The notes beneath the pieces were generated by a model. That model saw nothing but the letters and a program-made list of their open reading frames with translations. It was not told where the DNA came from and made no database searches. A stretch of DNA of 64,000 bases from an uncultured Gemmatimonadaceae bacterium (GTDB lineage Bacteria; Gemmatimonadota; Gemmatimonadetes; Gemmatimonadales; Gemmatimonadaceae): contig OY970320.1 of the NCBI GenBank assembly GCA_963716745.1, positions 2,912,001 through 2,976,000 of the forward strand. The letters run 5' to 3'. This document shows positions 15,415-54,280 of this stretch, in pieces. A program made the position numbers and the translations under genes. Each line of letters opens with the position of its first letter. The stretch's first letter is position 1.

Positions 15415-17681
15415 GCGGCAAGCGGTACCTCGAGGTCGCGCTCCCGCTCCCGCTGTTCCAGACCTTCACGTATTCGGTCCCCGACGGCGCGGCGCTCCCC
15501 GCGCCCGGGATGCGCGTGCTCGTGCCCGTGCGCGGGCGGCGCGCGATCGGCATCGTGCTCGGACCGGCGACGGGCGAGGGGATCAAGAACGTAAAGGACA
15601 TCCTCGACGCGCCTGACGCCGAGGCGAGCGTTCCCGCGGAGTTGCTCGCGCTCGCGCGCTGGATCGCGGACTACTTCGTGGCGCCGGTGGGGCTCGTACT
15701 GCGCGCGATGCTGCCGTCGGCGCTCACCGGCTCGCGGGTGCCGCGGCCGGCGCCGCGCACGCAGCGCATCGCGCGCCTCAGCGTGGAACTTCCATCGCTC
15801 GAGGAGCGCGACCGCGTCTTCGCGCGCGCGGCGCGGCAGCGTGCGCTCTATGAAGCGCTCGAATCGCTCGGCGGCGCGAGCGACACCGTGCATCTCACCA
15901 CGCAACTCGGCTTCGCGCCGGCGGTGATCCGCGCGCTCGCGGAGCGCGGGCTGATCGCGCTCTCGGAGAGCGAGGTGGTGCGCGACCCGTTCCTCGCGCG
16001 CGCGATTCCTCCGGCGGCGGCGCACGTACCGACGCCCGCACAGCGCGATGCGCTCGCGGCACTCGTCGCGGCCAAGCCGGGCGCCCCGTTCCTTCTGCGC
16101 GGCATCACCGGCAGCGGCAAGACGCTCGTTTACATCGAGTTCCTGCGGGAGATCGTCGAGCGGCGCGGCAAGAGCGCGATCGTGCTCGTGCCGGAGATCG
16201 CCCTCACGCCGCAGGCGGTGGACCGCTTTCGCGCGGCTTTCGGCGAACGCATCGCGGTGCTGCACTCCGGGCTCTCCGATGGCGAGCGCTACGACGCCTG
16301 GCGCGCGCTGCGCAACGGCACGAAGACGATCGCCGTCGGCGCGCGCTCGGCGATCTTCGCGCCGCTCGCGAACCTCGGCGCGATCATCGTGGACGAAGAA
16401 CACGAGGGCAGTTACAAGAACGGCGAGACGCCGCGCTATCACGCGCGCGAGGTCGCGCTCGTGCGCGCACGCGACGAGGGCGCGGTGGTGGTGCTCGGCT
16501 CGGCCACGCCGAGTCTGGAGAGCTGGCAGAATGCGCAGGCGGGGAAGTACACACTGCTCACGCTCCCCGATCGCGTGGCGGATGCGAAGCTGCCGGCGGT
16601 GGAAGTAGTGGACATGCGTGCGCCGGCGCGCCCGGCCGCGCAGGGTCCGCGCGCGGCGGTGATCGATCCCTTCCGCCGCGTGTTCAGCGAGCCACTCGAA
16701 GCGGCGCTCGGCGAGCGGCTGCAACGCGGCGAGCAGAGCATCCTGCTGCTGAATCGGCGCGGCTTCGCCGCGTTCGTGCAGTGCGATGCCTGCGGCGATG
16801 TCGTCGTCTGTCCCAATTGTTCGATCACGCTCACGTACCACAAGAATCCCGAGCGACTCGTGTGCCATTACTGCCGCCACGAGCAGGCGCTGAGCGAGAA
16901 GTGCGCGCGCTGCGGCGGCACCACGGTTCGCCAGCGCGGACTCGGTACGCAGCAGGCGGAGAAGCTGCTCGCCGAGCGGTATCCGTACGCGCGCATCGCG
17001 CGCATGGACGTGGACACGACGAGCGGCAAATGGGCGCACGCCGAGATCCTCGACCGCGTGGGGCGCGGCGAGGTGGACGTGTTGCTGGGCACGCAGATGA
17101 TCGCGAAGGGGCTCGATTTCCCGAACGTGACGTTGGTCGGTGTGATCGATGCCGATGTCGGGATCAACCTGCCCGATTTCCGCGCGAGCGAACGCAGCTT
17201 CCAGTTGTTGAGCCAGGTGGCGGGCCGCGCCGGCCGCGGCGCGAAGGGCGGGGAAGTGATCATCCAGACGCGCGTGCCTTCGCATCACGCCGTGCGCGCC
17301 GCGGTGACGCACGATTACCTCACGTTCGTTCGCGAAGAACTCTCGGGGCGGAAGGATCCCGTGTATCCGCCCTACACGCGCCTCGCGAACGTGATCGTGA
17401 GCGGCGAGGAGGAGGAACCGGTCGCGCGACTCACGATCGCGGCGGCCGCGTGGCTGCGGCGGCTGATCGCCGAGCAGAAAGTGGAAGGCGTGACGGTGGT
17501 CGGACCCGCGCCGTGCCCGGTGGAGCGAGTGAAGCGGCGGTGGCGGTGGCATTTGCTGCTCAAAGCCGAGAACCCGGCTTCACTGACGAAGGTCGCTCGC
17601 TATTTCCTTGAGAGGTTCGACGTTCCGGCGCGAGGGGAAATGAGAGTGAGCGTGGATCGGGATCCGGTGGCACTGCTCTAA
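15411..17681 (+). CDS. priA: Primosomal protein N' (helicase)
   Basis: GITGSGKT, LVPEIALTPQ, DEEHE, SATPSLES, four CxxC pairs, GTQMIAKGLDFP, QVAGRAGR. Confidence 0.97.
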   Translation: MSGKRYLEVALPLPLFQTFTYSVPDGAALPAPGMRVLVPVRGRRAIGIVLGPATGEGIKNVKDILDAPDAEASVPAELLALARWIADYFVAPVGLVLRAMLPSALTGSRVPRPAPRTQRIARLSVELPSLEERDRVFARAARQRALYEALESLGGASDTVHLTTQLGFAPAVIRALAERGLIALSESEVVRDPFLARAIPPAAAHVPTPAQRDALAALVAAKPGAPFLLRGITGSGKTLVYIEFLREIVERRGKSAIVLVPEIALTPQAVDRFRAAFGERIAVLHSGLSDGERYDAWRALRNGTKTIAVGARSAIFAPLANLGAIIVDEEHEGSYKNGETPRYHAREVALVRARDEGAVVVLGSATPSLESWQNAQAGKYTLLTLPDRVADAKLPAVEVVDMRAPARPAAQGPRAAVIDPFRRVFSEPLEAALGERLQRGEQSILLLNRRGFAAFVQCDACGDVVVCPNCSITLTYHKNPERLVCHYCRHEQALSEKCARCGGTTVRQRGLGTQQAEKLLAERYPYARIARMDVDTTSGKWAHAEILDRVGRGEVDVLLGTQMIAKGLDFPNVTLVGVIDADVGINLPDFRASERSFQLLSQVAGRAGRGAKGGEVIIQTRVPSHHAVRAAVTHDYLTFVREELSGRKDPVYPPYTRLANVIVSGEEEEPVARLTIAAAAWLRRLIAEQKVEGVTVVGPAPCPVERVKRRWRWHLLLKAENPASLTKVARYFLERFDVPARGEMRVSVDRDPVALL

Positions 17682-17794
17682 CGACGCGGGACTCGGGACT
17701 CGGGACTCGCCGCGGGATGCGAGAGGTGCGCGAGGCACCATCGCGCCGTTCACGAATCCCGCGGCGAGTCCCGAGCCCCGAGTCCCGCGTCGTT
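17680..17794. repeat. Foldback element with GGGACTC heptamer arms (family B)
   Basis: 39-bp arms 17680-17718 / 17756-17794 with one mismatch; begins AACGAC, ends GTCGTT; spans from the priA stop to the GMC stop. Confidence 0.92.
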
Positions 17795-22869: not shown

Positions 22870-22904
22870 GTCGTACGCGTTTAGCAGTTCTAAACGCGTA
22901 CGAC
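22870..22904. terminator. Perfect 15-bp hairpin between convergent ccdA and ggt
   Basis: GTCGTACGCGTTTAG-cagtt-CTAAACGCGTACGAC; followed by GTAGTT overlapping the ggt stop. Confidence 0.6.
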
Positions 22905-22917
22905 GAACGACCGTAGT

Positions 22918-24664
22918 TCAATATCCTGCCGCCCCGCCGCCCGTCCTGCGATCCACCACGCCTACCCATCCGTTCTTCGTGCGCTCGATCGCGAATGCAT
23001 CCGCAATGAAGCCCCGCGAGCCGAAGGTGGACACCAGCACAATGTGGCCCATCGCGGTGAGCGAGTCAATCACCGGCTGCTCCAGCGCGCCGGCTTCGTA
23101 GTGGATCGTGTCCGGGCGCGCCTGCTCGTGGATGCGCGGCGCGTTCATGGCCTCCAGCAGCGGCATGCGGTAGTCGATCACGCCGATCAGCACCTGCAGC
23201 ACCGCGGTGATGATGCGCGGTCCGCCGCGCGCGCCGAGCACCAGCGTCACGCGATTCGCGGAATCGAGCACGATCGTCGGCGCCATCGCGCTCAGCATGC
23301 GCTTCCCCGGCGCCACGGCGTTCCGCTCGCCCTGCACGAGGCCGTAGAGGTTCGGCTCGCCCGGCCGCACGGCGAAATCGTCCATCTCGTTGTTCAAGAA
23401 GAAGCCCGCGGCCGCGACGTACACGCCTGACCCGTACGATTCGTTGAGCGTGGTCGTGGTGGCCACCGCGTTCCCCTTGGCGTCCACGACGGAATAGTGC
23501 GTCGTGTGGACGCCCTCCGGGCTGCGGCTCTCTGCGCCGCCCGCTTGGTGTTGCTCGACGTTCGCTGTCGGCGTCGCGGAATCGCGGGAAATGCCGGCGG
23601 CGAGTGACCGCGCATACGCCTTGCTCACCAGCTGCGCGATCGGCACCGGAGAGAAATCCGGATCCGCCAGCTGCGAGTTCCGGTCCACGAACGCGCGGCG
23701 CAGCGCCTCCGCGAGCAGATGCGTCTCCATCGTGCCGCGCACCGGCGGCAGCGGGCCGAACGTCTCGAGGATGTTCAGCGTTTCGATCGTCGTCACGCCG
23801 CCCGACGACGACGGCGGCATCGAGATGATCGTGTAGCCGCGATAGGTGCCGATGAGCGGATCGCGCCACGCGGGGTGATAGCCCTTCAGGTCGGCCAGCG
23901 TGATGAGCCCGCCGTCTCGCTTCTGCGCATCGGCGATCGCTTGTGCGACCTCTCCCTGGTAGAATCCGCGCGCGCCATGCGCGGCGATCGCTTTGAGCGT
24001 CCGCGCGAGCGCGGGCTGCACGAGCTTCTGGCCGGCGGCGAGCGGTTTGCCGTTCGGCATAAGCAGCTTGGCGCCGGAGAATCGCCCGATCAGTCTCTGA
24101 CCGCTCGCGATCGAGTGCGCGAGCGCAGTGTCCACCACGAAGCCTTTCTCGGCGAGCCGGATCGCCGGCGCGATGACGCGCGCGAGCGGCAGATGTCCGA
24201 ACTCCGCGTGCGCCGTCGTGAGTCCCGCGACCGCGCCAGGAACCCCCGACGCGCGCGGCCCCACGATGCTCGCCTCGTTCGCGATGCTCGCGCTGTCCAT
24301 GTACATCTCGCGCGTCGCGGCCGCCGGCGCCATCTCGCGGTAGTCGAGCGCCGCCGTGCGGCCGTCGGCCATGCGGATCACCATGAAGCCGCCGCCGCCA
24401 ATGTTGCCCGCCTCCGGATACGTGACCGCGAGCGCGAAGCCCACCGCGACCGCGGCATCCACCGCGTTGCCGCCCTCCTTCAGGATCTCGACGCCCGCCG
24501 CGGTCGCGAGCTCGCTGTTCAATGCGATCATCGCGTGTGCGGCGTTCACCGCTTCGCCCGCGTTCGCGCGGGGAGTCGCCGCCGGCGCCTGCGCGCGCGC
24601 GGCGGTCACGATCGCGGCGGAAGCGAGGATCGGAACCGATGAACGTTCGTGTGATGGAATGCAT
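22918..24664 (-). CDS. ggt: Gamma-glutamyltransferase (signal peptide probably frameshifted)
   Basis: GGNAVDAAVA, GNIGGGGF, DYRE, nucleophile HTTHYSVVD, NNEMDDF, KRMLSAM; ATG at 24664 is out of frame with ORF 22918..24609. Confidence 0.93.
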
Positions 24665-26955: not shown

Positions 26956-26961
26956 AGCAGT

Positions 26962-29609: not shown

Positions 29610-29634
29610 AGCACCAACCTACGCAAAAGACGGC

Positions 29635-34548: not shown

Positions 34549-37436
34549 GACGTGGAAGGGCGCCCTTCGCGGCGCTGTGCTCGCTCGTGCTGTTGTGCGG
34601 CGCGGGACGCGCCGCGGCGCAGAGCGTGCCGCCCGACGGGAGCTGGCGCACGATCACGACGGCGCATTTCCGCGTGCATTTCCTGCCGCAAGTCGAAGGC
34701 CCCGCGAGGCGCGCGGCGGCGCAAGCCGAGATCGCCTACGCCAAGCTGGCGAAGCACCTCCACACGCCGCGCGGCGTCGTGGATCTCGTGATCGCCGACA
34801 ACGTGGATTTCTCGAACGGATTCACGACGGTCTTCCCCACCAATCGAATCACGATCTACGCGCTGCCCGGGCTCGACGATCCGTCGCTCGAATTCTACGA
34901 CAGCTGGTTCGAGCAGATCACGACGCACGAACTCACGCACACCTTCCAGCTCGACCGCACCGCCGGATGGTGGGCGATCGGGCAGGACATGCTCGGCCGC
35001 GCGCCGCTGCTCTTCCCGAACACGTACGAGCCGGCGTGGATGACCGAGGGGCTCGCCGTGTACTACGAGAGCGCGCTCACCGACGCGGGACGTGTGAACG
35101 GCACGATCTCCTCGATGGTGGTGCGCTCCACGGCGCAGAAGAACGCGCTGCCCTACTACGATCGCTGGAGCCTCGCGACCACGGTCTATCCGTACGGCAA
35201 CACCTCGTACGATTACGGCGCGGAGTTCCTGGACTATCTCGCGACCGTACACGGCGAGCCAACGCTCGGCGATCTCGTGGAGCGTGCGAGCCGCCGGCCC
35301 ATCCCGTTCACCTACAATGGCGCCGCGAGCGGCGCGTTCGGCATCTCGTTCGCCGACGCGTGGCAGCGGTGGCGCGATTCGCTCGCGCTCTCGGTGCACG
35401 GTCTTCCGCCCGCGGCCGAGCCGATGCCGGGATGGCACGATCTCACGCACACCGGCTACGACGCGGTCCGCCCACGCTGGGCGGACGATGGCACGCTTCT
35501 CTACGCCGGCAATCTCGGCAAGAGCTTCACCGCGGCGTATTCGCTCGACACCACGGGCGCCGAGCGGAGCGAAGGGCGCCGCAACAGCTTCGACACGCAG
35601 GTGCCGATGTCCAACGGCGGGATTTTGTATGCGCAGCTCGAGTACACCGATCCATATCACGTGCGATCCGATCTCTACACGGAACTGGCCGGCAAGAAGA
35701 CCAAGCTCACGCACGGTGCGCGTCTCGCGCAGCCGGACGCGCGCGGCGACGGCGCGATCGTGGCGGTGCGCTACGAACCCGCGACCACCACGCTCGTACG
35801 CGTGAGCGCCGACGGCCGCGCGATCACGCCGCTCACCGGCACCGCGGCCGACACCGAATGGGCCGAGCCGCGCTGGTCACCGAACGGCGCGCTCATCGCG
35901 GCCACGCGCTGGACGCGCGGCGCCTACGCCGACGTCGTGGTGATGGACACGACCGGACGGATCGTGCGGGTGTTCACGCACGACCGCGCATTCGACGCGT
36001 CGCCGTCGTGGAGCCCCGACGGGCGCGCGGTGCTCTTCACGTCCAACCGCACCGGCGCGCAGAACGTGTACATCGCGCTCGTCGACGGCGATGCGCCGCC
36101 GCGCCGCATCGGGAACGCGAGCTCGGGCATGTTCTATCCATCGCTCAGTGCCGACGGTCGCACGCTCGCCGCCGTGCGCTACGACGCCGACGGTGACCAT
36201 GTGGGCGTCGCGCCGTTCGACACGAGCGGCGCCGCGCCCACGCCGCTCGACAGCTCGTTCCTGGCGCCGCCCTACGCTGCGGCGGCGAGCGACACGTCGG
36301 CGTCTACGTCGTACTCACCCTTCCCCGCGCTCTGGCCGCATTACTGGCTGCCTGCGATCGGGTTCAACACGCTGAACGGCATCACGCTCGGCGCGTACAC
36401 GAGTGGCAGCGACGTGATCGGGCGCCATGTCTACTATGTGCAGGCGCTGTTCGACCCGTGGCACTACCAGAATGTGTTCGATGCGGCGTACGCCTACGCG
36501 GGGCTGGGCCAGCCGGTCATGTCGCTGGAAGCGACGCAATACTGGGATCAGTTCAACGATCCGATCGGACCATCGGGCGGAACGCTGTTCCGGCGCACGC
36601 GCGCGATGAACCTCACGGCCACCGTGCGGCGCCTGCGCGTGTATTCCACGGCGTTCGCGTCGCTCTCCGCCGGGATCCTGCAGAAGCACTACACGACCAC
36701 GCCCGACTCGCTGCTGCCTCTGCTGCCGGCCTACTATTCGAGCGATCCCGATTTCTGGTCCGTCGGCGCGGCAGCGGGCTACGCGAACGCGGCGACGCCG
36801 CCCACCGGTGTGTCGCCCGAGGACGGGATCAGCACGAACGTCGCCGCGACGTTCCGCTGGCTCGACGGCGAGAGCGCTCTCTGGTCGCAGAGCCTGCAGG
36901 CATCGATGAGCGGCTACGTCGCGCTCGCGCACGGCAGCTTCGCGCATCCGGTGCTTCGCGCGCGCGTGGCGGCCGGGGCCACGAGCGGCAGCAATCCGAT
37001 GCTCTTCGATCTGGGCGGCGTGAGCGGCGGAGGCGTGGTGCTGCTGCCCGGCGTAACGCTCGGCTCGCCGCGCTACTTTCCGGTGCGTGGCTTCACGGCG
37101 GGCGTGGAGAGTGGCGAGCGGATCGTGTCGGGCACGGTGGAGCTCGTGCTGCCGCTGGCCGGCATCCATCACGGCTTTGGATTCTTCCCGATCTTCCTCG
37201 ATCGCAGCAGCCTGACACTATTCAGCGACGCCGGCAGCTCCTGGGCGCCCGGCGAATCCGGCGGCGCGAGCACACGACCCATCGCCTCCGCCGGCGCCGA
37301 GGTCACGATCTTCGTGGGCGTACCATATGATGCGGCGTACGCGCTCCGGTTCGGCGTGGCAGTTCCCTACGAGAACCAGAGCGGCGTCGCGACGCCCGCC
37401 GTGACGTTCTATTTCACGTTGGGAGTGGGCAACTAA
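34545..37436 (+). CDS. Exported metallopeptidase-like + TolB/PD40 propeller + Omp85-type barrel protein
   Basis: Signal peptide; HELTH..EGLA gluzincin motif; PRWSPNG, PSWSPDG, PSLSADG repeats; VRGF barrel motif. Confidence 0.8.
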   Translation: MRRGRAPFAALCSLVLLCGAGRAAAQSVPPDGSWRTITTAHFRVHFLPQVEGPARRAAAQAEIAYAKLAKHLHTPRGVVDLVIADNVDFSNGFTTVFPTNRITIYALPGLDDPSLEFYDSWFEQITTHELTHTFQLDRTAGWWAIGQDMLGRAPLLFPNTYEPAWMTEGLAVYYESALTDAGRVNGTISSMVVRSTAQKNALPYYDRWSLATTVYPYGNTSYDYGAEFLDYLATVHGEPTLGDLVERASRRPIPFTYNGAASGAFGISFADAWQRWRDSLALSVHGLPPAAEPMPGWHDLTHTGYDAVRPRWADDGTLLYAGNLGKSFTAAYSLDTTGAERSEGRRNSFDTQVPMSNGGILYAQLEYTDPYHVRSDLYTELAGKKTKLTHGARLAQPDARGDGAIVAVRYEPATTTLVRVSADGRAITPLTGTAADTEWAEPRWSPNGALIAATRWTRGAYADVVVMDTTGRIVRVFTHDRAFDASPSWSPDGRAVLFTSNRTGAQNVYIALVDGDAPPRRIGNASSGMFYPSLSADGRTLAAVRYDADGDHVGVAPFDTSGAAPTPLDSSFLAPPYAAAASDTSASTSYSPFPALWPHYWLPAIGFNTLNGITLGAYTSGSDVIGRHVYYVQALFDPWHYQNVFDAAYAYAGLGQPVMSLEATQYWDQFNDPIGPSGGTLFRRTRAMNLTATVRRLRVYSTAFASLSAGILQKHYTTTPDSLLPLLPAYYSSDPDFWSVGAAAGYANAATPPTGVSPEDGISTNVAATFRWLDGESALWSQSLQASMSGYVALAHGSFAHPVLRARVAAGATSGSNPMLFDLGGVSGGGVVLLPGVTLGSPRYFPVRGFTAGVESGERIVSGTVELVLPLAGIHHGFGFFPIFLDRSSLTLFSDAGSSWAPGESGGASTRPIASAGAEVTIFVGVPYDAAYALRFGVAVPYENQSGVATPAVTFYFTLGVGN

Positions 37437-37563
37437 CAGCTTGACAGGATGAACATGATTGGCTTGATGGACGTCGCCCCTCGAGGATCTCGGCGCCGTA
37501 ACCCCAAAGCAGTCATCCTGTTAATCATGCCCTTAATCATGTAATCCTGTCAAAGCTCTTGTT
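37435..37563. repeat. Degenerate foldback element, family C (GACAGGAT/ATCCTGTC)
   Basis: AACAGCTTGACAGGATGAACATGATTGGC...AATCATGTAATCCTGTCAAAGCT; homologous to 44364-44461. Confidence 0.85.
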
Positions 37564-40448: not shown

Positions 40449-40473
40449 GCTAAGTCGCAGTGCCGGATCGACG

Positions 40474-40510
40474 AGCGGGCCAGGTGCGATGCGCTTGGCC
40501 CGCTTTTTTT
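40474..40510 (+). terminator. Intrinsic terminator after nrdJ
   Basis: AGCGGGCCA...TGGCCCGCT stem followed by a T7 run. Confidence 0.8.
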
Positions 40511-40542
40511 CTCGGTGCGCCATTCTCGATCCGAGCGCTCAG

Positions 40543-40773
40543 GAAGGATCACGCGAACTGCTTCAACGCGGATTATGCGGAAGCGGCGAATGATGCGCGG
40601 ATCGTTCTAGGCGCGATGAGAGCTATTCGCAGCCGGTCGAGTTCGTGTTGTTGTTGTTAACAGCAAAAGACAAGACGCTGACTGGGTGCATGATAGCTGT
40701 GACGCTCCGCGGAGTAATCCGCCAGATTCGCTGACTCCGCATGATCCGCGTCGAAGCAGTTCCGTGATCCTTT
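40543..40773. repeat. ~230-bp foldback element upstream of the GxxExxY gene
   Basis: Arms 40543-40591 and 40726-40773 are near reverse complements and contain AACTGCTT / AAGCAGTT; partially palindromic AT-rich centre. Confidence 0.88.
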
Positions 40774-40871
40774 CTCATGAGCCTATGAACCCAAGATCGC
40801 GCCGCATGATCGGGTGGTTCATGCGAGCGAAAGATGATGCATCGATGAGACGAGACATGCGATGATCCGGG

Positions 40872-41289
40872 ATGGCACGATATCGATTTGATCGAGGACG
40901 GATCACCACAGTGTCATCGGCGCGTTCTACGAGGTCTATAGGATTCTTGGATTCGGCTTCCTTGAGCACATCTACGCTGCGGCGCTCGAGCGTGAATTGC
41001 TGTCGCGCGGCCACCACGTGAGCCGAGAGGTCGGTGTCGGATCAGTACAAGGACGAGGAGATCGGCCGTTCAGCGCATGGACATGGTGGTGGATCAGCGA
41101 GTCATCGTCGAGATCAAGGCGACATCGAACTGCTGCACGCCAGCGCCGAAGCGGCAGCTCTTCAACTATCTTCGTGCGACCGACTGGACGGTTGGCCTTC
41201 TGCTGCACTTCGGGCTGAGGCGCGGAGTTCCGGCGCCTGGTCTCGACGCGGCCGGTGAGGGGTGCGAACTGGGCGCGCGGGGGCGATAA
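40872..41289 (+). pseudogene. GxxExxY family (PD-(D/E)XK-like nuclease) gene with multiple indels
   Basis: SVIGAFYEVYRILGFGFLEHIYAAALERELLSRG (GFLEHIY at 40955-40975), QYKDEEIG, RMDMVVDQRVIVEIKA, QLFNYLRAT..VGLLLHFG in shifting frames; not a single ORF in the track. Confidence 0.88.
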
Positions 41290-41338
41290 ATTCGGACTCG
41301 CGTCATCCGGCACCATCCGACCTTGAATGAGGGGACCT

Positions 41339-42034
41339 ATGCGGAAGTCTGAGGATTGCAGCACTCGCGGGGCGGTCGCAGCGATGGGATTCGCCGCACC
41401 GGTGCGCGCGCAGAATACGTTCGAAGGCGTCATCGAGTTCAGGTTCCTGGGAAAGGATTCCATGACCATGACCCAGACGAGCAAGGGGAACATGGTACGG
41501 ATGGACGTGCACGGAAAAGAGAGTATGCCGATCGCGATGTTGTACGATAGTAAGGCGAACACCATGACGATGGTCATGTACAATCAGAAGATGTACATGG
41601 TGAATCCCATGCCGTCGCTCGATTCCGTGCTCGCGAGCCACAACCGCAAGGTCTCCTTCACCAAGACGGGGCAGACGGAGACGGTAGCCGGTGTGAGCTG
41701 CACGATCTACAAGGGCTCCAGCACGGACGCCAATGGCAAGGTGCGCGAGGGACAGGCATGTCTGGCGAAGGGCGTCGGCTTCATGATCTTCCAGTCGATG
41801 AACCGCGGACGTGGCGGACCCCAGGGCTCGATGGCGGAGATGTTCCGGGAACTGGCCGCGCAGGATCTCCATGCGATCAAAATGTGGAGCATGAAGGACG
41901 GCCAGATGGTGCCGGAGATCGAAGCGGTGTCGATCGAGAAGAAGTCGGTGCCCAGCTCGACGTTCGAGATCCCGTCGGACTTCAAGAAGATGGACATGCC
42001 CGCCGGCATGGGCGGCATGCCGACGAAGCCTTAA
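41339..42034 (+). CDS. DUF4412-like exported protein
   Basis: Signal peptide (probable compensating indels), FEGVIEF, KTGQTETVAGVSCTIY, FEIPSDFKKM. Confidence 0.8.
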   Translation: MRKSEDCSTRGAVAAMGFAAPVRAQNTFEGVIEFRFLGKDSMTMTQTSKGNMVRMDVHGKESMPIAMLYDSKANTMTMVMYNQKMYMVNPMPSLDSVLASHNRKVSFTKTGQTETVAGVSCTIYKGSSTDANGKVREGQACLAKGVGFMIFQSMNRGRGGPQGSMAEMFRELAAQDLHAIKMWSMKDGQMVPEIEAVSIEKKSVPSSTFEIPSDFKKMDMPAGMGGMPTKP

Positions 42035-42156
42035 CTACAGACTTAGACTCTAGACTTAGACTCTAGAAGACGGATGTGAGATGTCGGAAAGCCAACGGGG
42101 GGCGCGGCCGAAAGCCGCGCCCCCCGTTGCGTATTCTCAGTCTAAAGTCTGTCGTT
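42033..42156. repeat. Foldback element with AGACT repeats enclosing a bidirectional terminator-like hairpin (42093-42129)
   Basis: Begins AACTAC-AGACTTAGACTCTAGACTTAGACTCT, ends AGTCTAAAGTCT-GTCGTT; overlaps both stop codons; perfect 16-bp GC stem inside. Confidence 0.8.
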
Positions 42157-42670: not shown

Positions 42671-42768
42671 TTGACGCCTCTCAATGGTTGAAGTTCGACG
42701 GGAGGCGCGCGATGGGACCTGATCCGTTTCCGCGCGCCGTAGCCATTAAAACTAGCTTACCTTTCCAT

Positions 42769-44361
42769 ATGGCTGCAACCCGCGCCGAGCGGCGCTTGCT
42801 CGCGACGGTGCTCCTGTCGCTCTCCGCCGGTGCGCTGGCAGGGCAGGGCAGCCCGCCCGATCCACTCGTGATCCGCGGCATCGCGATCGAGACCCACCGG
42901 ATCTTCGATTCGGCCGAGGCCACGAGCGCGTTCTACCGCACCATGAACTCGCTGCACAGCACCACACGCCCGTACGTCATTGAGCAGCAACTGCTGTTCA
43001 AAGTGGGCCAGCGCTGGGACACGGCGCTCGTGCGCGAGACCGCGCGCAATCTGCGCGCGCTCGGGCTCTTCCGCCTCGTCACGATCGACAGCATCGCCAC
43101 CGATTCCGGGTTGATCGCGCGCGTGATCACGCAGGATGCCTGGACGTTCGGCATCGTCTTCACGATCAAGGCGAGCGGCTCGCAGATCGGTTACGCGATC
43201 GGATTCAACGACCGCAACGTGCTCGGCAGCGGCACGCAGTTCCAGATGCAGTACGGCAAGAACCCGGACCGTGACTCGCTCATGTTCGGCGCGTCGCGCG
43301 AGTTCTTCCTCGGCACGCCGTACGACGCGGCGATCAACTACAACCGGCTCTCCGACGGTCAGACCGGGTGGGCGACCTTCGGTCTTCCGTTCCGCACGCT
43401 CGAGTCCACGCGCGGGTGGACACTGGGCTCACAGCTCTACAATGGGCGCATCCTGCTGTTCTATGGGGGCGACACGGTCGCGCAGGATACGATGCGCCGC
43501 AGCTTCCAATTGTACTCGCTGAATCCCGCGATCTCGCTGCAGTCCAGCAACGCGGGATATCTGCGGCTGGGGCTCTACGGCCAGATCGAGCGCAACGATT
43601 TCCAACAGTACTCGCTGCCCGCGAGCGAGATCCCCAGCACCATTACGGCCGCATTCGGACCGTACCTCTCGTTCTCGCGGCCGACGTTCGAGCACACGCG
43701 ATACTACCAGGCCGGCGGGCGCCGGGAGGATCTGCAGCTCGGGTTCACCGGAACGTTCGGAGTGGGATTCGCGCCGGCCCAGTGGGGCTACGGGACGACC
43801 GGCGTCTCGCCGACGCTGTTCGGGACCTACTACGCTCGTATCGGTGCCGCGATCGTCGAAGAGTCGCTGTCGGTCACGTCGCTCTACTCGAGGAACGGAC
43901 TCGACTCCGGCACGGTGTTCGCGTCGGTCACCGCCTTCTGGCAGCCCACGGAGACGCAGCTGCTCATCGGCTACCTGGGCGGCGGCGCGCAGAAGAACGG
44001 ATATCCCGGCGAGAACTGGGACCTCGGATTCGGCTACGCCGTGCGCGCCTTCCCGCAACATTCCTTCACCGGCGATCGCGTATACATGATGGACGCGGAA
44101 TATCGCTGGTTCTTCGCGCCGGACGTGGTCCGATTATTCGCGGTAGGAATGGGCGTCTTCGTGGACCATGCCGGCGCCTGGTACGCGGGTTCTCCGGTGC
44201 GCTCAGGGACCGACGCCGGATTCGGGCTGCGCTTCGCGTCGATCACCGGCAATCCGGGCTACGTCATGCGCGCCGATGTCGCCTACCGGTGGGCCAATTC
44301 GGCGCTGCCGGGCGGCTGGGTGTTCACGTTCGGGAAAGGATTCGTGTGGCAGTTATTCTAA
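42769..44361 (+). CDS. Omp85/BamA-TamA family outer-membrane protein with one POTRA-like domain
   Basis: Signal peptide, TRPYVIEQQLLFKVG..ETARNLRALGLF, NVLGSG, VRAF, terminal Phe. Confidence 0.85.
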   Translation: MAATRAERRLLATVLLSLSAGALAGQGSPPDPLVIRGIAIETHRIFDSAEATSAFYRTMNSLHSTTRPYVIEQQLLFKVGQRWDTALVRETARNLRALGLFRLVTIDSIATDSGLIARVITQDAWTFGIVFTIKASGSQIGYAIGFNDRNVLGSGTQFQMQYGKNPDRDSLMFGASREFFLGTPYDAAINYNRLSDGQTGWATFGLPFRTLESTRGWTLGSQLYNGRILLFYGGDTVAQDTMRRSFQLYSLNPAISLQSSNAGYLRLGLYGQIERNDFQQYSLPASEIPSTITAAFGPYLSFSRPTFEHTRYYQAGGRREDLQLGFTGTFGVGFAPAQWGYGTTGVSPTLFGTYYARIGAAIVEESLSVTSLYSRNGLDSGTVFASVTAFWQPTETQLLIGYLGGGAQKNGYPGENWDLGFGYAVRAFPQHSFTGDRVYMMDAEYRWFFAPDVVRLFAVGMGVFVDHAGAWYAGSPVRSGTDAGFGLRFASITGNPGYVMRADVAYRWANSALPGGWVFTFGKGFVWQLF

Positions 44362-44363
44362 AC

Positions 44364-44461
44364 AACTGCTTGGACAGGATTAACATGATTGGCATGATGA
44401 ACGGCGTGCGCGCGCCGATGCCGTTCATCATGCCAATCATGTTAATCCTGTCAATGCAGTT
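44364..44461. repeat. Foldback element, family C, perfect 33-bp arms
   Basis: GACAGGATTAACATGATTGGCATGATGAACGGC (44373-44405) equals the reverse complement of 44420-44452; bounded by AACTGC and GCAGTT. Confidence 0.93.
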
Positions 44462-46808: not shown

Positions 46809-46809
46809 G

Positions 46810-47565: not shown

Positions 47566-47617
47566 CCGCGCGACGCGAGCACGGCTCCGGCGAGCTCGGA
47601 GCCGTGCTCAGATCCCG

Positions 47618-49759
47618 CTATGGCCGGCCGCGGCCGCCGCCGCCGCTGCGCGGCGCGGATCGCGTCGTGCCGCCCGATCGTGCGTTATTGTAGCTCTGCG
47701 TTTTCTGCTGGCCGTGCTGGCGGTTCTGCTGCGTGCGGTTCACGTCACTGTTGCGCGTGCCGCTGTTCTGCCACTGGCCGCCTTTGTTCTGCTGCACCTG
47801 ATTGCCGTTCTGGCGATAGACGTTCCCGTCCTTGCCCGCCACGACGTTGTTCGGCCGGCCGGACGCAGGTTTCCCCGACGGCATCGTCCCCGCGGTAGGC
47901 TGCGTCACGCGTCCCGTGTTACCGGGCTGCCGGTACATGTTGTTCCCGCCGTACGGCGTCGGACGTGCGCCGCCCGCGCCCGGACGCGCGCCGCCCGCCG
48001 AGCCGTAGCCCGGGCGGTTGCCATACCCGGGATAGCCTCCGCCATATCCCGGACGGTATCCGGGATAGCCGCCATATGGCGGACGATAGTATGGCGGCGG
48101 ATACGGAGGCCGGCCGTACGGTCCATACCAGCCACCGTAGCGCGGTCCGCCCACCACGATGCCGACGTGCATGAAGGGGGTGCTGTAGCCGAACCCGACG
48201 GTGAAGCCGGTCCACGGATTGTAGCGGACGGCTACTCCGTACGTGACCGGACGCGGGTAGTAGACGTACGGCGAGACGTACGGCGGATAGTACCACCCGG
48301 TGCCGTACACGATCGTGCCATAGTACGGATACATGCCCACGTAGCCCGGCGTGTAGCCGACGTACACCACCTGCGGCGTCGACTGATAGACCTCCACGTA
48401 CTTCGTGTTATACACGGGCGAGCTGGGCGGGATGGTCTGGACCGCCTTGGGCACGGAATCGCTCACCGTCCACGGACCGATCGGGCCGATCGATGAGAAC
48501 CACACCGCGTTGTCGCATGCGTAGTAGATCCCGTCGATCTTGAGCACCTGCGTCTGCGTGTTGGTGGCGTAACTGACGCTCGTGCCGGGGATCGCCTCGA
48601 ACTTCGGGTCGCCGTCGTATGACACCGTGAGCTTCGCCGTCGCGCGGTCGATCGCGGCCGTCTGCGGGATCTGCGCATCGAGCAACGCATCGGTGGCCTG
48701 CTCGGTGCCCGGCACGGAGGCGAGCACATCCGCTTGCGACGAGGCGGGTGGGATCTTCGCGAACACCGCGGGCAACGAATCCGGCCGCACGAACGTCCAC
48801 GGTCCGCTGAACGACGAGGCGCGGAACCAGCGGCCGGACAGCAGCACATATGTCTGCTGGTCCGCGAGCAACTTGAACACATTGCGATCGGTGTTGGTCA
48901 CGTACAGCAGATCGACGCCGGTGACCGGCGACCATTTCGGTTCGCCCTGGAAGACGATGAGTTCCGTGGGTTTCGTCGCCACGATGATCTTCGGTGGCCC
49001 GCTGGGCGGCGCGCTATCGCGCTGCAGCGAATCGGGCACGAGTGCTTTCACCGCCGCGGGCGGCGTCTTGATGCTCGTCCACGGACCGAGCGCCGCGCTC
49101 GCGGAATACCAGATCGGACCGCCATTCAGATAGAACGTGTTGTTGGCGGTGTCGCGCACGACGAACATCGGCGTATTCACGGCGCGTTCGAAGCCGGTGC
49201 CGCGCATCCCCTGGAGGATCGGATCTCCGGCGTAGAGTAGCAGCGCCGCGGGCACGTTCGAGAAGAGGACCACCGGCGGCTCGGTGTTCAGACTGTCGGC
49301 CGAGCGTTGCTCGGTGGCGGCGTCGGCGAGGCTGGTCTGGAATCGGTCGAGCGCGATCGTGAACGTCCACTTGGTGATGAGCGGATTCACGACCGTCCGG
49401 AACTTCGTTTCCTGCTCCGGCGTGCTGCCCGGGAAGCGCACATTGGACACCACCACCTGGTCGATGGACACGATGCGCGTGTCCTTGTCGGTTTGCGCGC
49501 GCGAGCTGAACCACACGACGCCGAACACGGGCGTCTTGCCCGTGAGCGTCACCGCGACCGCGGAGCGCGCCGCGAGCGCGATGCCGTTGAGCGACTCTGG
49601 TTGCGGCTGGTAGATCACGATCTTCGCGGAATCGGTGTCGAGTTCTCGCGGCCAGCCAATGTCGTAGGTCTGTGCGGAGGAGAGCGATGAGACGGCGACG
49701 AGGCCGAGGGTGGCAAAGAGGGCCGCGAGGTATTTCCGTGGCTCCATCTGGATCGACAT
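47618..49759 (-). CDS. Large exported protein with Tyr/Pro/Gly-rich and Gln/Asn-rich low-complexity tail
   Basis: Signal peptide; GWPR..IYQPQ, YVLLSGRWF, VYVGYTPGY, DGNVYR motifs. Confidence 0.8.
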   Translation of the reverse strand: MSIQMEPRKYLAALFATLGLVAVSSLSSAQTYDIGWPRELDTDSAKIVIYQPQPESLNGIALAARSAVAVTLTGKTPVFGVVWFSSRAQTDKDTRIVSIDQVVVSNVRFPGSTPEQETKFRTVVNPLITKWTFTIALDRFQTSLADAATEQRSADSLNTEPPVVLFSNVPAALLLYAGDPILQGMRGTGFERAVNTPMFVVRDTANNTFYLNGGPIWYSASAALGPWTSIKTPPAAVKALVPDSLQRDSAPPSGPPKIIVATKPTELIVFQGEPKWSPVTGVDLLYVTNTDRNVFKLLADQQTYVLLSGRWFRASSFSGPWTFVRPDSLPAVFAKIPPASSQADVLASVPGTEQATDALLDAQIPQTAAIDRATAKLTVSYDGDPKFEAIPGTSVSYATNTQTQVLKIDGIYYACDNAVWFSSIGPIGPWTVSDSVPKAVQTIPPSSPVYNTKYVEVYQSTPQVVYVGYTPGYVGMYPYYGTIVYGTGWYYPPYVSPYVYYPRPVTYGVAVRYNPWTGFTVGFGYSTPFMHVGIVVGGPRYGGWYGPYGRPPYPPPYYRPPYGGYPGYRPGYGGGYPGYGNRPGYGSAGGARPGAGGARPTPYGGNNMYRQPGNTGRVTQPTAGTMPSGKPASGRPNNVVAGKDGNVYRQNGNQVQQNKGGQWQNSGTRNSDVNRTQQNRQHGQQKTQSYNNARSGGTTRSAPRSGGGGRGRP

Positions 49760-50002
49760 GCGGGTGCTCTCCAGGCTCGTGAGTGGGGGCCACCGGCGAG
49801 GGCGGGCCAGACTTCTAAACTACTGGGCGTGGTACCCCACGCAACGGGCGCGGTGCCTCGAACGCGTAGGTCTTAGGTACAACGACCTGCGCTCGAAACA
49901 AACGTGCTGAGTCGTAACGCCGGGCGCCGGCCACTCGTCGAGTACTGAAGGGGGAAACCCCCGTTCCGCACCAGCGGAGCGCTCCCGCACGTCGGCCCAC
50001 GA

Positions 50003-51919
50003 ATGACTCGCTCGTCCACCGCGGCGGCAACGGTTCCGCCGTCCGTCGTCATCCTCGGCTCGGATGCGCTGCTCACCGCGCTGCCGGCCACGCCGACGCA
50101 GCTCGCCAATGCGTGCTATGCGGCGGGGTTCGAGGGCGTATTCCCCGCGAGCTGGGGGGACGAGCTGGTGGCCGCCGGGTGCCTGAAGAATCTCGAGACG
50201 CGCGTGGGACCGGCGATCCTGTGCACGTGCCCGCTCGTGTCGGAGCAGCTGCGCGGGGTCGCGCCGTTGCAGCGATTCCAACTGCATCTGATCTCGCCGC
50301 CGGTGGCCGCGGCGCGCTACCTGCGCGCGCTCTGCGACGACGCGCCGCTGCGCATCACCTACGTGGGCGATTGCCCCGGTGCGGAGAACGACGTGATCGA
50401 CGAGCACGTGTCGCCCTCCGACTTCCTGAGTCGTCTCGCGGAGCGCGGCATCACGCCGATGTCGCAGCGTCCCGATCTCGGCGCGAACGTGCCCCGCGAC
50501 CGCCGCCGCTTCTACTCGCTGCCCGGCGGAGCGCCCACGCCCGAATGGCTCTCCGCGGATTGGCCGAAGCGGATCCTCGTGGACACCGACGCCGGTGACG
50601 CCCTCGCCGACCTCGCGCATCACGCGCTCGCGCGCGAGAGCACGCTCATCGATTTCGCGCCGCAGCTCGGCTGCGCGTGCAGCGGATCGATCGGCGGCAT
50701 CGCGCCCGCGGAGGCGCGAAAGGCGGTGGCCGAGCTGGAGCCGCAGCGTGCGCGACAGGAAGTGCTGGATCCCGATCTGCGGGTCGCGGTGGAATCACTG
50801 GTGCCGATGGGCGCCGGCGGCGAGGAGGTCACCTGGGATGATTTCCTCGCATCGCTACCGGGCACGCTGGCGCCGGACGGATCGCCGGGCGATGCGGCGG
50901 TGCATCCCGGTGCGAGCGCGCCCCCGCCGCAGCGGCGGTCGCGCGAAGGGGCCGTGTTGCCGCGCGCCTACGCGACGCCAAGGGTGACGCGCCGGCGCGC
51001 GGGCGCGGGCGAAGGGAGCATCTCGGGCGAGATGCCGGCGGTGCGCGCGAGCGCACCCGTTCCGGAGACCCGTCTCACGCCGGCGCCCGCGATGAGCACC
51101 GCGGTCGCCCCCGCGTCAACGCGCAGCACGCAGCCGGTGCCGCGGCGCTCGCAGCTCGTGGAGGGCGCGAGCATACCGCGCTTCCCGGTGCCGGTGCGCC
51201 CGGCGATCACGCCGGCGGACCGGTGGCTGCTCATCGCGATCGTGCTCGGGGCGAGCGCATTGAGCGCGTCGGTCGCGAGCTATCTCACCGTGCGCGCGAC
51301 CGCGGGACGTCCGGCGCCGGTGAGCGCGTCGGGCACCGTGGCCGTCGCGCCGCCCCAGCACGCCGTGGCACCGCTGCCCGCTGTGCGCGACAGCGAGGCG
51401 ACCGTGGTGCGTGTGGATCCGCCGGCATCGCTCCAGTCGCTGCGGGCGACGCCGCCGCCGCTTGGCGATCAGCGCACACTCGCCGCGGCAGCGGCGCCAC
51501 GTGGCCGGCCCATGACGCCGGCGCCCGCGCCGGCGAAGTTGCAGCGTCGCGGCAAGCCTGTGGTGATCCCTCCGGCGCCGCCCCCCGCGCCCGCGCCGCC
51601 GCTGCCGCGCGACGCGAGCGCCGACGCGCCGCCGATCGTCATCCCGGTCGCACCGATGGCGGCGACATCGCCGGCGCCGGTCGCGGCGACTCCGGCGCCG
51701 AGCGTCGCGCCGACGGATAGCGCGCCGCCGGCCGCGGCGGCTGTCGCCGCGCCGGTGCCCGCTGCCGCGTCAACGGTGGCGGCGCCGCCGGCCGCGCCGC
51801 CCGTGGACATCGCCGCCGAACTCAAAGCGATCCGCGAAGAATTGAACGCGCGCAAGCATCGTGTCGACTCGCTCAGCCGCTCGCTGGACTCGCTGAAGAG
51901 CGCGTCGCCGCCGCGCTGA
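50003..51919 (+). CDS. [FeFe]-hydrogenase large-subunit C-terminal-like domain fused to TM helix, Pro/Ala-rich stalk and coiled coil
   Basis: AGFEGVFPASWGDELVA, PAILCTCP, LISPPVAAARYLR, ITYVGDCP, GCAC resemble the degenerate H-domain fold. Confidence 0.65.
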   Translation: MTRSSTAAATVPPSVVILGSDALLTALPATPTQLANACYAAGFEGVFPASWGDELVAAGCLKNLETRVGPAILCTCPLVSEQLRGVAPLQRFQLHLISPPVAAARYLRALCDDAPLRITYVGDCPGAENDVIDEHVSPSDFLSRLAERGITPMSQRPDLGANVPRDRRRFYSLPGGAPTPEWLSADWPKRILVDTDAGDALADLAHHALARESTLIDFAPQLGCACSGSIGGIAPAEARKAVAELEPQRARQEVLDPDLRVAVESLVPMGAGGEEVTWDDFLASLPGTLAPDGSPGDAAVHPGASAPPPQRRSREGAVLPRAYATPRVTRRRAGAGEGSISGEMPAVRASAPVPETRLTPAPAMSTAVAPASTRSTQPVPRRSQLVEGASIPRFPVPVRPAITPADRWLLIAIVLGASALSASVASYLTVRATAGRPAPVSASGTVAVAPPQHAVAPLPAVRDSEATVVRVDPPASLQSLRATPPPLGDQRTLAAAAAPRGRPMTPAPAPAKLQRRGKPVVIPPAPPPAPAPPLPRDASADAPPIVIPVAPMAATSPAPVAATPAPSVAPTDSAPPAAAAVAAPVPAAASTVAAPPAAPPVDIAAELKAIREELNARKHRVDSLSRSLDSLKSASPPR

Positions 51920-51926
51920 GCGTCGC

Positions 51927-52424
51927 ATGCTGAGCGCGCTCATCGCGATGTGGATCGCCGGCGCGGCGCCGCCGGCGCACGGGGACTCGACCGCGGTGAA
52001 CCGGTTCCTCTGGTACGACGCCGCGGCGCGCACCGCACATGTGCGGATCGTCGCCGCGTTCGATGGCGCCAATGGCGGGATGAATTTCAACGGCGCGTCC
52101 AACGGCGGCGCGACGATCGCGGTCCCGCTCGGCTGGAACGTGCTCGTCGCATTCGTGAATCGTGACGCGGTCCCGCACTCGGCGATCATCATCGCGTCGG
52201 GAGCGGCGCTGCCGGCCATCCCGGAGACACCCGCCTTCGGCGGCGCGTACACCACCGGGCTCACCGCCGGACTCGGCACCGACCAGACCGACGTCATGCG
52301 CTTCGCCGCGTCGCCGGCGGGAGAGTACATTCTCGTGTGCGGCGTGCCCGGACACGGCGCGAGCGGGATGTGGATCCGCTTCAAAGTGTCGCCCAGCGCC
52401 AGCACGCCCGCGTACACCCCATGA
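51927..52424 (+). CDS. Sulfocyanin-like blue copper protein
   Basis: MNFNG..VPLGWNV..NRDAVPHS..CGVPGHGASGMW; type-1 Cu ligands His, Cys, His, Met. Confidence 0.88.
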   Translation: MLSALIAMWIAGAAPPAHGDSTAVNRFLWYDAAARTAHVRIVAAFDGANGGMNFNGASNGGATIAVPLGWNVLVAFVNRDAVPHSAIIIASGAALPAIPETPAFGGAYTTGLTAGLGTDQTDVMRFAASPAGEYILVCGVPGHGASGMWIRFKVSPSASTPAYTP

Positions 52425-52436
52425 CGAGCCCCGCCG

Positions 52437-53696
52437 ATGCTCAGCGCTGACCAGATCCAGGTCCTGATCTCGTACATCGGTGTCATCGTGCAGCTCGTGG
52501 GCTCGGTGCTCCTGGTGGTGTTCTTCTTCCTGCTGCGCCGCAACATGTCGCGCAAAGCGTACTTCGGCATGTGGGGATGGGCGTGGCTGTTCGTCACGCT
52601 CGCGATCCTGATGCTCGTCTATCGCTACCGTGCGATGCCGAATTTCGATTCGGGCGCGTCGGGCGACTCCGCGACCGGCGTGCGGGTGCTGTACATGGGC
52701 TACATGTTCTTGAAACTGCTTTACTTGGAATGCCTGGTGGCCGGCACTGTCATGTATGCCACCGGTCTCAGGGCGCGCCGCTATTTCACGATCACCATCG
52801 TGGGCGCGATCGGCTACTCGATCATCTCGGTGCTGGTCGGGCAGGACCTGAACGCCATCGTCGTGTGGCAATCGCCGGTCGCGGTCGCGGCGTTCACCTA
52901 TTGCGCGTACACGCTCCTGCGGCTCTCGCCCTCGCGGCGGAGCCTGGGCAGCGAGACCACTGGCACGATCTTCGGACTCGCCGGCGCGGTGTGGGCGCTC
53001 TACGCCGGCGCGTTCGGCCTGAACCTGGTGGGATCGCCCGAGCACAATCCGCTCATCGAGGTCGTGCGTCACAATTCGTACGTGGACATCCTCGTGCAGG
53101 TGCTGCTCGGGTTCGGCATGGTGGTGATGCTCCTCGAGGACGCGAAGCGCGAGGTGGACGACGCGCACGCCGAGTTGGAAGTGGCGCACAATCACCTGCG
53201 ACGCGAGGCGCTGTTGGATCCGCTCACCGAGGCGCTCAACCGCCGTGCGTTCAGCGAGGGCGTGGGCCTCGATACCGCCAAGGCGGCGTTCGGCACCGTC
53301 GCGATGCTGGACATGGACAACTTGAAGGTGACCAACGACTCACACGGCCACGCCGCGGGCGACGCGCTGCTCCGGTATGTGGTGCGGGTGCTGCGCACGA
53401 CCGTGCGTCCGTCGGATCGCGTCTACCGGTGGGGCGGGGATGAATTCCTCGTCGTGCTGCCCGGCGCCTCGCTCGAGGACGCGGAGTACCGGCTCGGCCA
53501 CGCGATCGCGACGGCGATGCCGCTGGTGCTGCCGGCGGTCACCGAGTCGCTGCCGCTCCTCGTGAGCGTAGGATGCGCGCCGTACGCGGGCGCTGAGGAG
53601 CTGATCCAGGCGATCGACGCCGCCGACCATGCGATGTACGCGCAGAAGGCCCGCCGGAAATCACGCGGCATGCCGGCCGCGCAGTCGGTCGCGTGA
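52437..53696 (+). CDS. Membrane-bound diguanylate cyclase
   Basis: About 7 TM helices; DPLT..NRR, NDSHGHAAGD, I-site RPSD, intact GGDEF. Confidence 0.93.
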   Translation: MLSADQIQVLISYIGVIVQLVGSVLLVVFFFLLRRNMSRKAYFGMWGWAWLFVTLAILMLVYRYRAMPNFDSGASGDSATGVRVLYMGYMFLKLLYLECLVAGTVMYATGLRARRYFTITIVGAIGYSIISVLVGQDLNAIVVWQSPVAVAAFTYCAYTLLRLSPSRRSLGSETTGTIFGLAGAVWALYAGAFGLNLVGSPEHNPLIEVVRHNSYVDILVQVLLGFGMVVMLLEDAKREVDDAHAELEVAHNHLRREALLDPLTEALNRRAFSEGVGLDTAKAAFGTVAMLDMDNLKVTNDSHGHAAGDALLRYVVRVLRTTVRPSDRVYRWGGDEFLVVLPGASLEDAEYRLGHAIATAMPLVLPAVTESLPLLVSVGCAPYAGAEELIQAIDAADHAMYAQKARRKSRGMPAAQSVA

Positions 53697-53700
53697 TCCG

Positions 53701-54096
53701 ATGAAGCTGCGCGACAAGGCGGAGATCGTGGTCGCCTGCGCGCTGTTGCCGCCCGCTCTGGAACTGCTGCCAGCCGCGCGCGTCGTCGCGTGGCTCCGCC
53801 GCGTGCGCCCGCGCCGCCGGGAGGCACTCTCGGGTGAACGTTATGCGGAGGCGGTGGACCGGGTACTGAACCGCGCGCCATCGATCTGGCGGAACACATG
53901 CTTGCGGCGCGCGGTGGTACTCGAGTTCCTGCTGCGACGGAGCGGGAGGGAGGCGGAAGTGGTGATCGGAGTGCGCCGGGCGGCGAGTGGGAGCATCGAG
54001 GCGCATGCGTGGCTGAAGTGCGAGGGAGTGGAGCCGTACTTGGATCCGGAAGATCTCGAGACTTTCGTGCGGATGACGGCACCACGAACTACGTGA
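53701..54096 (+). CDS. Lasso-peptide B2-like / transglutaminase-like cysteine protease
   Basis: NTCLRRAVVL..VVIGVR..IEAHAWL..G motif pattern. Confidence 0.85.
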   Translation: MKLRDKAEIVVACALLPPALELLPAARVVAWLRRVRPRRREALSGERYAEAVDRVLNRAPSIWRNTCLRRAVVLEFLLRRSGREAEVVIGVRRAASGSIEAHAWLKCEGVEPYLDPEDLETFVRMTAPRTT

Positions 54097-54280
54097 GTAC
54101 CGAGTCGTGCGTGTTCGACCACTGACCACGTGAGTACCGAGTCGTGCGTGTTCGACCACCAACGGCGTGAGTACCGAGTCGTGCGTGACTCGGTACTCAC
54201 GCATTAAGTGGTCCAACACGCACGACTCGGTACGAACGCATCAAGTGGTCGAACACGCACGACTCGGCACTCACGTAGTT
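54087..54280. repeat. Palindromic array of 31-bp units (direct copies then inverted copies, 6-nt spacers)
   Basis: Unit CGTGAGTACCGAGTCGTGCGTGTTCGACCAC at 54092, 54129, partial at 54166; inverted at 54188 (partial), 54208, 54245; ends AACTAC / GTAGTT. Confidence 0.93.

Follow-up and report, generated by a model that had tools for sequence, protein, structure and literature searches.

A REP-like system of tagged hairpins with cognate cassette genes, and its replacement at orthologous sites in Gemmatimonadaceae

Introduction

The closest described relatives of the elements studied here are REP sequences (repetitive, extragenic and palindromic), including the REP doublets forming hairpins (REPIN) and the bacterial interspersed mosaic elements (BIME), with their REP-associated tyrosine transposases (RAYT). 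These are described as intergenic hairpin doublets with a short terminal tag (PMC3116915; PMC3686654; PMC6006769). The window analysed in this work is a stretch of 64,000 nt from an uncultured Gemmatimonadaceae bacterium (GenBank assembly GCA_963716745.1, contig OY970320.1, positions 2,912,001 to 2,976,000 of the forward strand; G000:C1:2912001-2976000 in our notation). [quoted passage not shown] The elements proved to be gene-less copies of arm-gene-arm cassettes, in which each cargo gene has its own arm family. Their sites are nearly always retained among relatives, and the hairpin at a site is episodically replaced by another family, a new version or a gene-carrying cassette, or its loop is inverted. 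The feature is real and, as far as the literature was searched, new to it; it amounts to a variant of the REP-plus-cognate-gene design that lacks a transposase, with evidence for replacement in place. No description of the cassettes, the tag or the in-place replacement was found, in a search largely outside subscription journals and without supplements.

As in the REP/RAYT system, each repeat class has one cognate gene, which is flanked by the class and switches with it. Class switches beside orthologous genes (orthoswitches) and head-to-head or back-to-back arrangements are also shared (PMC3686654). In the orthoswitch model, as presented in that source, new variants spread, and older ones decay or are in part numerically displaced; here, by contrast, the sites of the old copies themselves hold the new version. 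An HUH/Y1 enzyme was not detected, and the arms are tandem arrays. There is also no 5' GT[AG]G guide at the hairpin foot; AACNRC stands at the outer 5' ends, so that GTAG would be 3'.

Other known systems share single features. In TIRtrons/TIRYT, a gene is enclosed by long terminal inverted repeats that constitute a repeat family as well, and the CGTC-tagged repeats have no dedicated transposase (PMC3733652). The enclosed gene there is a tyrosine transposase, and the word 'helix' is absent from the main text of that source. The rRNA intervening sequences and the Avd proteins of diversity-generating retroelements share the PF05635 protein family with most of the cargo genes; in the former, as here (7/7), the open reading frame (ORF) lies in the loop of a long stem. 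In one source, the 23S_rRNA_IVP proteins are described as functionally uncharacterised, with scattered insertion sites (bioRxiv 2024.02.27.582315). Unlike the rRNA intervening sequences, the genes here lie between protein-coding genes, as do the window elements, and have dozens of gene-less copies. Unlike a diversity-generating retroelement, no reverse transcriptase was found (PF00078, 0/5 genomes, all incomplete). Bacterial MITEs are likewise short intergenic repeats fused to reading-frame ends (PMC3184786), but here no target-site duplication and no matching insertion sequence was found (DDE families were not searched). The TAACTGA repeats also have heptamer units overlapping stop codons; they are described as direct repeats for which no transfer mechanism is evident; the source as seen draws no link to four-helix-bundle genes (PMC4679880).

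Materials and methods

The source genome (G000) is a single contig of 3.29 Mb with 67% GC, and is 89.8% complete. One of its proteins has its closest relatives in Gemmatimonadaceae, the most likely family of the host. The relatives G002, G003, G004 and G005 belong to the same genus; all assemblies are incomplete (63-90% complete). G016 is a tagged genome without a GxxExxY gene (98% complete). Element ends were set by inverted-repeat extension, blind to the motif. Gene calls for the stop-codon and junction counts were taken from a codon model built in this analysis. For the ortholog comparison, about 0.8 Mb was used from each of G002 and G004, plus 0.25 Mb from G005. The site comparison left out 10 long insertions and elements >400 nt. 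The PF05635 tree was a quick tree (105 columns, 54 open forks), from which loci without a bracketing repeat, stop-containing or short matches, and the frameshifted G000 gene were excluded. The tallies of 35/41 (PF05635) and 22/41 (GxxExxY) include the unpublished genome G012, on which no other claim depends.

Results

Hairpin families and the terminal tag

A motif-blind scan of G000 found 315 inverted-repeat loci, which occupy 46 kb (1.4% of the genome) and group into about 13 families of 3-43 copies plus singletons. In 600 kb, 31 loci were found in the real sequence and 0 in the shuffled one. The loci are multicopy intergenic hairpin doublets, with 8/315 called intragenic. AACKRC was found at 226/630 ends, against 13 expected from random windows (shuffles: mean 15, max 24). 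The shared ends reported by the sequence-only reading are therefore enriched well above chance genome-wide, although the true motif is wider: AACAGC and AACCGC are also common, and AACNRC is found at 278/630 ends (23 expected from random windows, 23-30 across controls, shuffle max 43). The tag is oriented, since the outer 5' ends read AACNRC and the reverse-orientation motif stays at the background level (23/630 ends). Profile conservation stops at the tag hexamer in families 0, 4, 7, 8 and 9, and less sharply in families 1, 5 and 6; families 10-13 (25 loci) are essentially untagged (2/50 ends). A stacked second tag occurs 6-14 nt further out (mostly 6-7 nt) at 35/255 anchored ends (4 expected). 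Neighbouring elements belong to the same family in 90/281 cases (31 expected; max 49 in 5000 permutations).

The element density peaks at G000:C1:750000-1000000 and 2100000-2400000, with up to 34 per 100 kb compared with 2-6 elsewhere. The peaks include one-family runs, such as family 0 at 905-951 kb. A mirror symmetry of the families about the origin-terminus axis was considered and dropped as ambiguous, the best axes being scattered (0.16-0.17 vs mean 0.107, sd 0.026). Ordinary small intergenic hairpins carry AACNRC at 33/284 ends (6 expected), some of them being family fragments, and terminator-like stems genome-wide are often closed by AACGG..CCGTT. The tag also occurs back to back in the loop: a GTTGTT/AACAAC palindrome centres long GxxExxY-associated hairpins (window 40640-40670; G000:C1:1296792-1297011).

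Cassettes with cargo genes between arms

In G000, 7/7 PF05635 (four-helix-bundle) genes and one intact GxxExxY gene lie between hairpin arms. Each of these eight cargo genes sits in a different arm family (0, 1, 9, 2, 5, 7, 3 and 4), and family 8 has a four-helix-bundle cassette in G002 and G004. Bracketing by arms was found for 24/29 genes from relatives, compared with 0 control intervals, and for 62/80 loci in many phyla. Reading of the quick tree indicates that cargo gene and arm family remain paired across the genus. Where checked, the genes enclosed by long-span inverted repeats were all of the four-helix-bundle or GxxExxY type, in an analysis that did not search DDE families. The tie of the elements to these two gene types, guessed by the sequence-only reading, was thus borne out, with the genes as cargo inside the arms. 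The PF05635 protein matches PDB 2GSC (5 chains, E 2e-20); no solved structure was matched by the GxxExxY sequence. At G000:C1:3223400-3224050, a scrambled GxxExxY remnant with pieces in both orientations (by eye) lies within family-12-type arms; an open gene is found there in G002 and G004.

The tag was found at 21/52 cassette ends in this genus, 8/12 in G016 and 11/150 in others. Outside Gemmatimonadota it is at the control level (7/78 cassette ends vs 9 in controls). Inside Gemmatimonadota it is near the control (8/46 vs 6), and 5 of those 8 tagged ends sit in three loci whose arms resemble the families of this genus. The tag is scattered over several PF05635 protein clades, well-supported branches of the quick tree requiring 9 or more changes, and GxxExxY cassettes also end in it. 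For these reasons the tag follows the host lineage and not the cargo; it is a host-lineage feature common to families and cargo types.

Retention and replacement at orthologous sites

The comparison covered 199 site-by-genome pairs at 111 sites. A related hairpin was found in 128 pairs, a related but degenerate one in 13, a non-alignable hairpin in 42 and none in 16; a hairpin is therefore kept at 183/199 pairs within the genus. Plainly different families are present at about 10 sites (by eye). Where both versions are tagged, the tag stands in the same register at 15/22 ends. Elements thus do differ between relatives, as the sequence-only reading had anticipated. Clean empty sites, to which it had looked, are rare, the usual polymorphism being one hairpin replaced by another. 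The target duplications that it had proposed to look for were not found at the junctions: 73/85 elements have none, compared with 78/85 random positions.

A family-wide switch was observed between family 3 and a second version, 'T'. At 2.641 Mb, the arms of the master cassette are of family 3 in G000 but of type T in G002, G004 and G005. Identity is 65% in the arms, about 74-75% (nt) in the gene (G004, G002) and 86-96% in the flanks. The dispersed copies differ along with it: G000 family-3 sites hold T in G004 at 9/13, against 4/72 other sites (p 1e-6); in G002 at 6/14 (3 hold family 3), against 2/88; and in G005 at 3/3, against 2/18. All 12 of 12 such G004 copies are closer to a paralog than to their ortholog. 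The same derived family-0 variant is also found at two unlinked G004 sites. Cargo moves as well: the cargo gene at 1.008 Mb is inverted between its arms in G002 and G005, three sites that are gene-less in G000 carry the gene in relatives, and the cassette at 2.134 Mb is replaced by another cassette in G004.

Gene ends and flanking DNA

The elements are located at gene 3' ends. Of the 144 tagged ends that have a called stop codon in the range -60..+30 nt, 63 overlap it (as T+AA or TG+A), and convergent junctions account for 78/234 classified loci compared with 309/2321. Silent divergence is 0.199 within 100 nt of elements vs 0.128. At silent sites, the strand leading into the element has little C (0.21 vs 0.37 within 50 nt) and has gained G.

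Search for an enzyme

Neither a Y1 transposase in G000 (PF01797, Y1_Tnp) nor a RAYT in the genus genomes (NF047646, 0/5, 63-90% complete) was detected; the RAYT absence reported for the window thus extends to G000 and 5 genus genomes. DUF559 gave no match. GIY-YIG gave one match in a long open frame, which is probably uvrC (DDE and HNH families were not searched). IntI was over the cut-off in 1/5 genomes, being intact in G005 and broken in G000. At G000:C1:2775564-2778260, the broken integron-integrase-like gene is followed by two attC-like sites, one of which starts TAACTGC.

Elements in the window

The six elements and their hexamers were recovered at the coordinates of the sequence-only reading (Table 1). 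Four of the six and both longer degenerate elements have folding z of -5 to -15 vs 200 shuffles; those at 40556 and 54087 were folded without shuffle comparison. The elements do not stand alone in the genome. The arms of each match 13-52 genome loci, except 40556 (1 match at the same stringency), the elements at 37435 and 44364 are one family, and those at 17680 and 20069 belong to sister families. Convergent genes do not flank the 40556 element. The stop-codon arrangements were confirmed: the elements at 17680 and 42033 overlap both flanking stops, and those at 44364 and 54087 supply the stops of ORF 44451-46808(-) and ORF 53629-54096(+). Further overlaps, beyond these four, are at 37435 and 22913-22918. 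The nuclease-like GxxExxY gene adjoining an element is present, with its PF13366 match, but is frameshifted in G000. An Rfam search of the window gave no match. Contigs from four DNA runs over window 36000-55500 listed no joint spanning an element, which is uninformative.

Table 1. Hairpin elements and the GxxExxY gene of the window, in window coordinates.
Position	Strand	Feature	Remarks
755..1041		family-11 hairpin	untagged, slow-changing family; no cargo gene found
7094..7327		family-6 hairpin	untagged; absent from the sequence-only reading
11495..11530		single family-9 arm	end GTAGTT
17680..17794		gene-less hairpin, family 6 (7-nt GGGACTC units)	AACGAC..GTCGTT; ends overlap priA and GMC oxidoreductase stops
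20069..20182		gene-less hairpin, family 1 (GGGAAGC units)	tag degenerate on the left; only a remnant in G005
22872..22918		short repeat, stacked GCAGTT/GTAGTT tags	last tag overlaps gamma-glutamyltranspeptidase stop; 4 genome loci
26828..26955		gene-less hairpin, family 0	stacked outer tag GCAGTT 26957-26962, overlapping stop of downstream convergent gene
37435..37563		degenerate family-4 (nonamer) hairpin	AACAGC overlaps stop of ORF 33921-37436
40556..40761		nonamer-type hairpin, central GTTGTT/AACAGC palindrome	immediately upstream of GxxExxY gene
40872..41289	+	GxxExxY gene (PF13366, PD-(D/E)xK-like)	frameshifted; Pfam match split in two (40907-41035, 41068-41217)
42033..42156		family-8 hairpin (CTAGAC-type units) around terminator-like stem	both ends overlap stops
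44361..44461		family-4 hairpin 44364-44461, stacked AACAAC at 44361	gives multiheme/TPR gene its stop
54081..54286		family-5 hairpin (37-nt units)	tagged at 54087 and at 54275-54280; provides the stop of ORF 53629-54096

The window sites illustrate the variation among relatives. At site 17680, G002 and G004 have the sister family 1 and G005 has family 0, without a change of register; both tags of the G005 version are in register with family 6 of G000. Site 26828 is occupied by family 4, out of register, in G002 and G005; G004 has a family-0 variant there, and G003 has no element. Site 40556 holds family 10 in G002, and 40556-type hairpins are found at other sites in G004. The adjoining GxxExxY gene has an open reading frame in G002, G004 and G005, and retains an upstream hairpin among relatives, the hairpin family differing in G002. 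The 44364 element is missing in G004 and has its arms back-to-back in G005. The number of units differs among relatives in the 22872..22918 repeat and in the 54087 element. At the 42033 junction, the G005 ortholog of window 42156-42670 has an additional gene of about 500 nt and a different short hairpin. Family 11 (window 755-1041 and 2425-2535) is well conserved between relatives and may be another kind of repeat.

Several neighbouring genes were also noted. The gene at 44451-46808 (-), which takes its stop codon from the hairpin, encodes a multiheme cytochrome c with HEAT/TPR repeats. A cluster at 26962-32483 (-) encodes FHA-trypsin, PP2C phosphatase, Ser/Thr kinase and zinc-ribbon-FHA proteins. 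The gene at 53629-54096 (+) encodes a Transglut_core3 protein, a Pfam family which takes in lasso-peptide B2-type proteins, and adjoins a GGDEF-like gene.

Discussion

The REP/MITE-like system proposed from the window is supported as a REP-like repeat system of several families whose terminal motif is shared and oriented; simple transposase-type insertion is not supported. The observations lean slightly towards a REP/RAYT-like system, in which arm-gene-arm cassettes are the master copies and the gene-less members are renewed by in-place templated overwriting. A hairpin at a gene 3' end might extrude or be nicked. Repair might then use another element, in many cases a neighbour, as the template between the AACNRC stubs, overwriting the existing hairpin. 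The arm specificity of the cognate cargo protein may bias which version spreads, and the tag probably marks the start or end of copying. Part of the reason for the tag staying in place may be that the neighbour's stop codon is completed by T+AA or TG+A, and selection for a hairpin in the mRNA 3' end might explain the rarity of empty sites. As for the cutter, GxxExxY is a less likely candidate than a host nuclease or recombination pathway; SbcCD breaks long palindromes in E. coli (PMC3315005).

A number of points weigh against overwriting. No enzyme, intermediate or live event was observed, and the SbcD-like match is below the family cut-off. The family-wide in-place change is based on a single family pair in three relatives. 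In most other families, orthologs are still closer than paralogs; overwriting would therefore be episodic. Diverged versions of a single family make up many of the 42 non-alignable pairs, 7/22 scorable ends are out of register, and at 62/84 ends the motif is missing from one version within the searched window. G002 holds at least 2 haplotypes in places. Independent insertions could also reuse the same gap, gene-dense genomes having few tolerated gaps. In G000, no cargo gene is enclosed by family 11 or by the 40556 type. C>T changes beside elements are not raised either (9/528 vs 0.016). Deamination after break resection was considered as the source of the C-poor flanks and is unsupported, there being no C>T excess; the C-poor strand into the element therefore looks like selection on RNA, which would explain the sites being kept filled.

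This pattern bears on an unlikely explanation at the RNA level. Four-helix-bundle pentamers might each bind their own hairpin in mRNA 3' ends, acting on stability or Rho-coupled termination, with AACNRC as an RNA signal and not a DNA-break site; copies would change by slippage and ordinary RecA conversion, and be selected to match the protein. The enrichment at convergent 3' ends, the C-poor silent sites and the tag on small ordinary hairpins are consistent with it, and Avd, likened in structure to S23 proteins, binds RNA (bioRxiv 2023.10.23.563531). It fits poorly with the in-register replacement by unrelated families, the inverted cargo, the stacked tags and the local clustering of families. 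An RNA role is also compatible with overwriting, as the reason why the sites are kept. For the same pentamers a DNA role can be proposed, tentatively and with some doubt: as sequence-specific adaptors, they might load a host repair or recombination activity on their own hairpins, in a transposase-free 'overwrite homing'.

The sequence-only reading had suggested one enzyme recognising the shared ends. A single AACNRC-acting enzyme is possible, but simple insertion by one transposase is unsupported. It is improbable that a transposase or HUH nuclease recognises AACNRC, excises and inserts the hairpins, and is missing from the incomplete assemblies or lost. The strong oriented tag across families would suit such an enzyme, as would the few empty sites and the GTAG (the REP guide) contained in the reverse complement of AACTAC; this GTAG, however, lies at the 3' end and not 5' of the hairpin foot. 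Y1_Tnp, RAYT and target duplications are lacking, the cognate genes are not transposases, and cassettes in other phyla have arms without the tag. That the GxxExxY nuclease is the common cutter of all families is very improbable, in spite of its PD-(D/E)xK-type Pfam match, its presence in 5/5 same-genus relatives and the intact G000 copy within tagged arms. GxxExxY is not a general tag reader, because G016 has the tag at 10/16 ends and tagged cassettes with no GxxExxY gene. Moreover, family f3 has four-helix-bundle genes in 7/8 genomes and GxxExxY in 0/8, and families 10, 12 and 13, found beside GxxExxY genes, are untagged. The integron attC boxes read RYYYAAC...GTTRRRY. The AAC..GTT triplets, the stop in TAAC, the IntI gene of G005 with the broken G000 copy and its attC-like neighbours, and the weaker pairing of the two bases following AAC (68% and 78%, against about 90% in the arm interior) might suggest attC-like substrates of an integron integrase. 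This reading is scarcely credible and was rejected, since RYYY precedes AAC in just 7/170 ends; the cargo genes also lie inside the hairpin and not before it, and 4/5 genomes have no IntI over the cut-off. Equally little credence is left for independently evolved terminators with an end shared by chance, the alternative against which the sequence-only reading had set itself. The position at convergent gene ends would fit them, but they are refuted by the tag enrichment, the multicopy families, the cognate cargo genes and the replacement between relatives.

PF05635 and GxxExxY are widespread families without assigned function, and heptamer and nonamer repeats have no accepted origin. G000 offers eight natural protein-arm pairs, and the relatives add a switch of protein, arms and dispersed copies together; such pairs make direct binding and swap assays possible. 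If in-place overwriting is true, dispersed repeats can evolve in concert without a transposase, and about 300 transcript ends could change in a coordinated manner by this route. If the pentamers do act as adaptors in this way, a change in a master cassette would lead to dozens of hairpins being rewritten in place between AACNRC stubs fused to stop codons, and mRNA 3' ends would be reprogrammed together.

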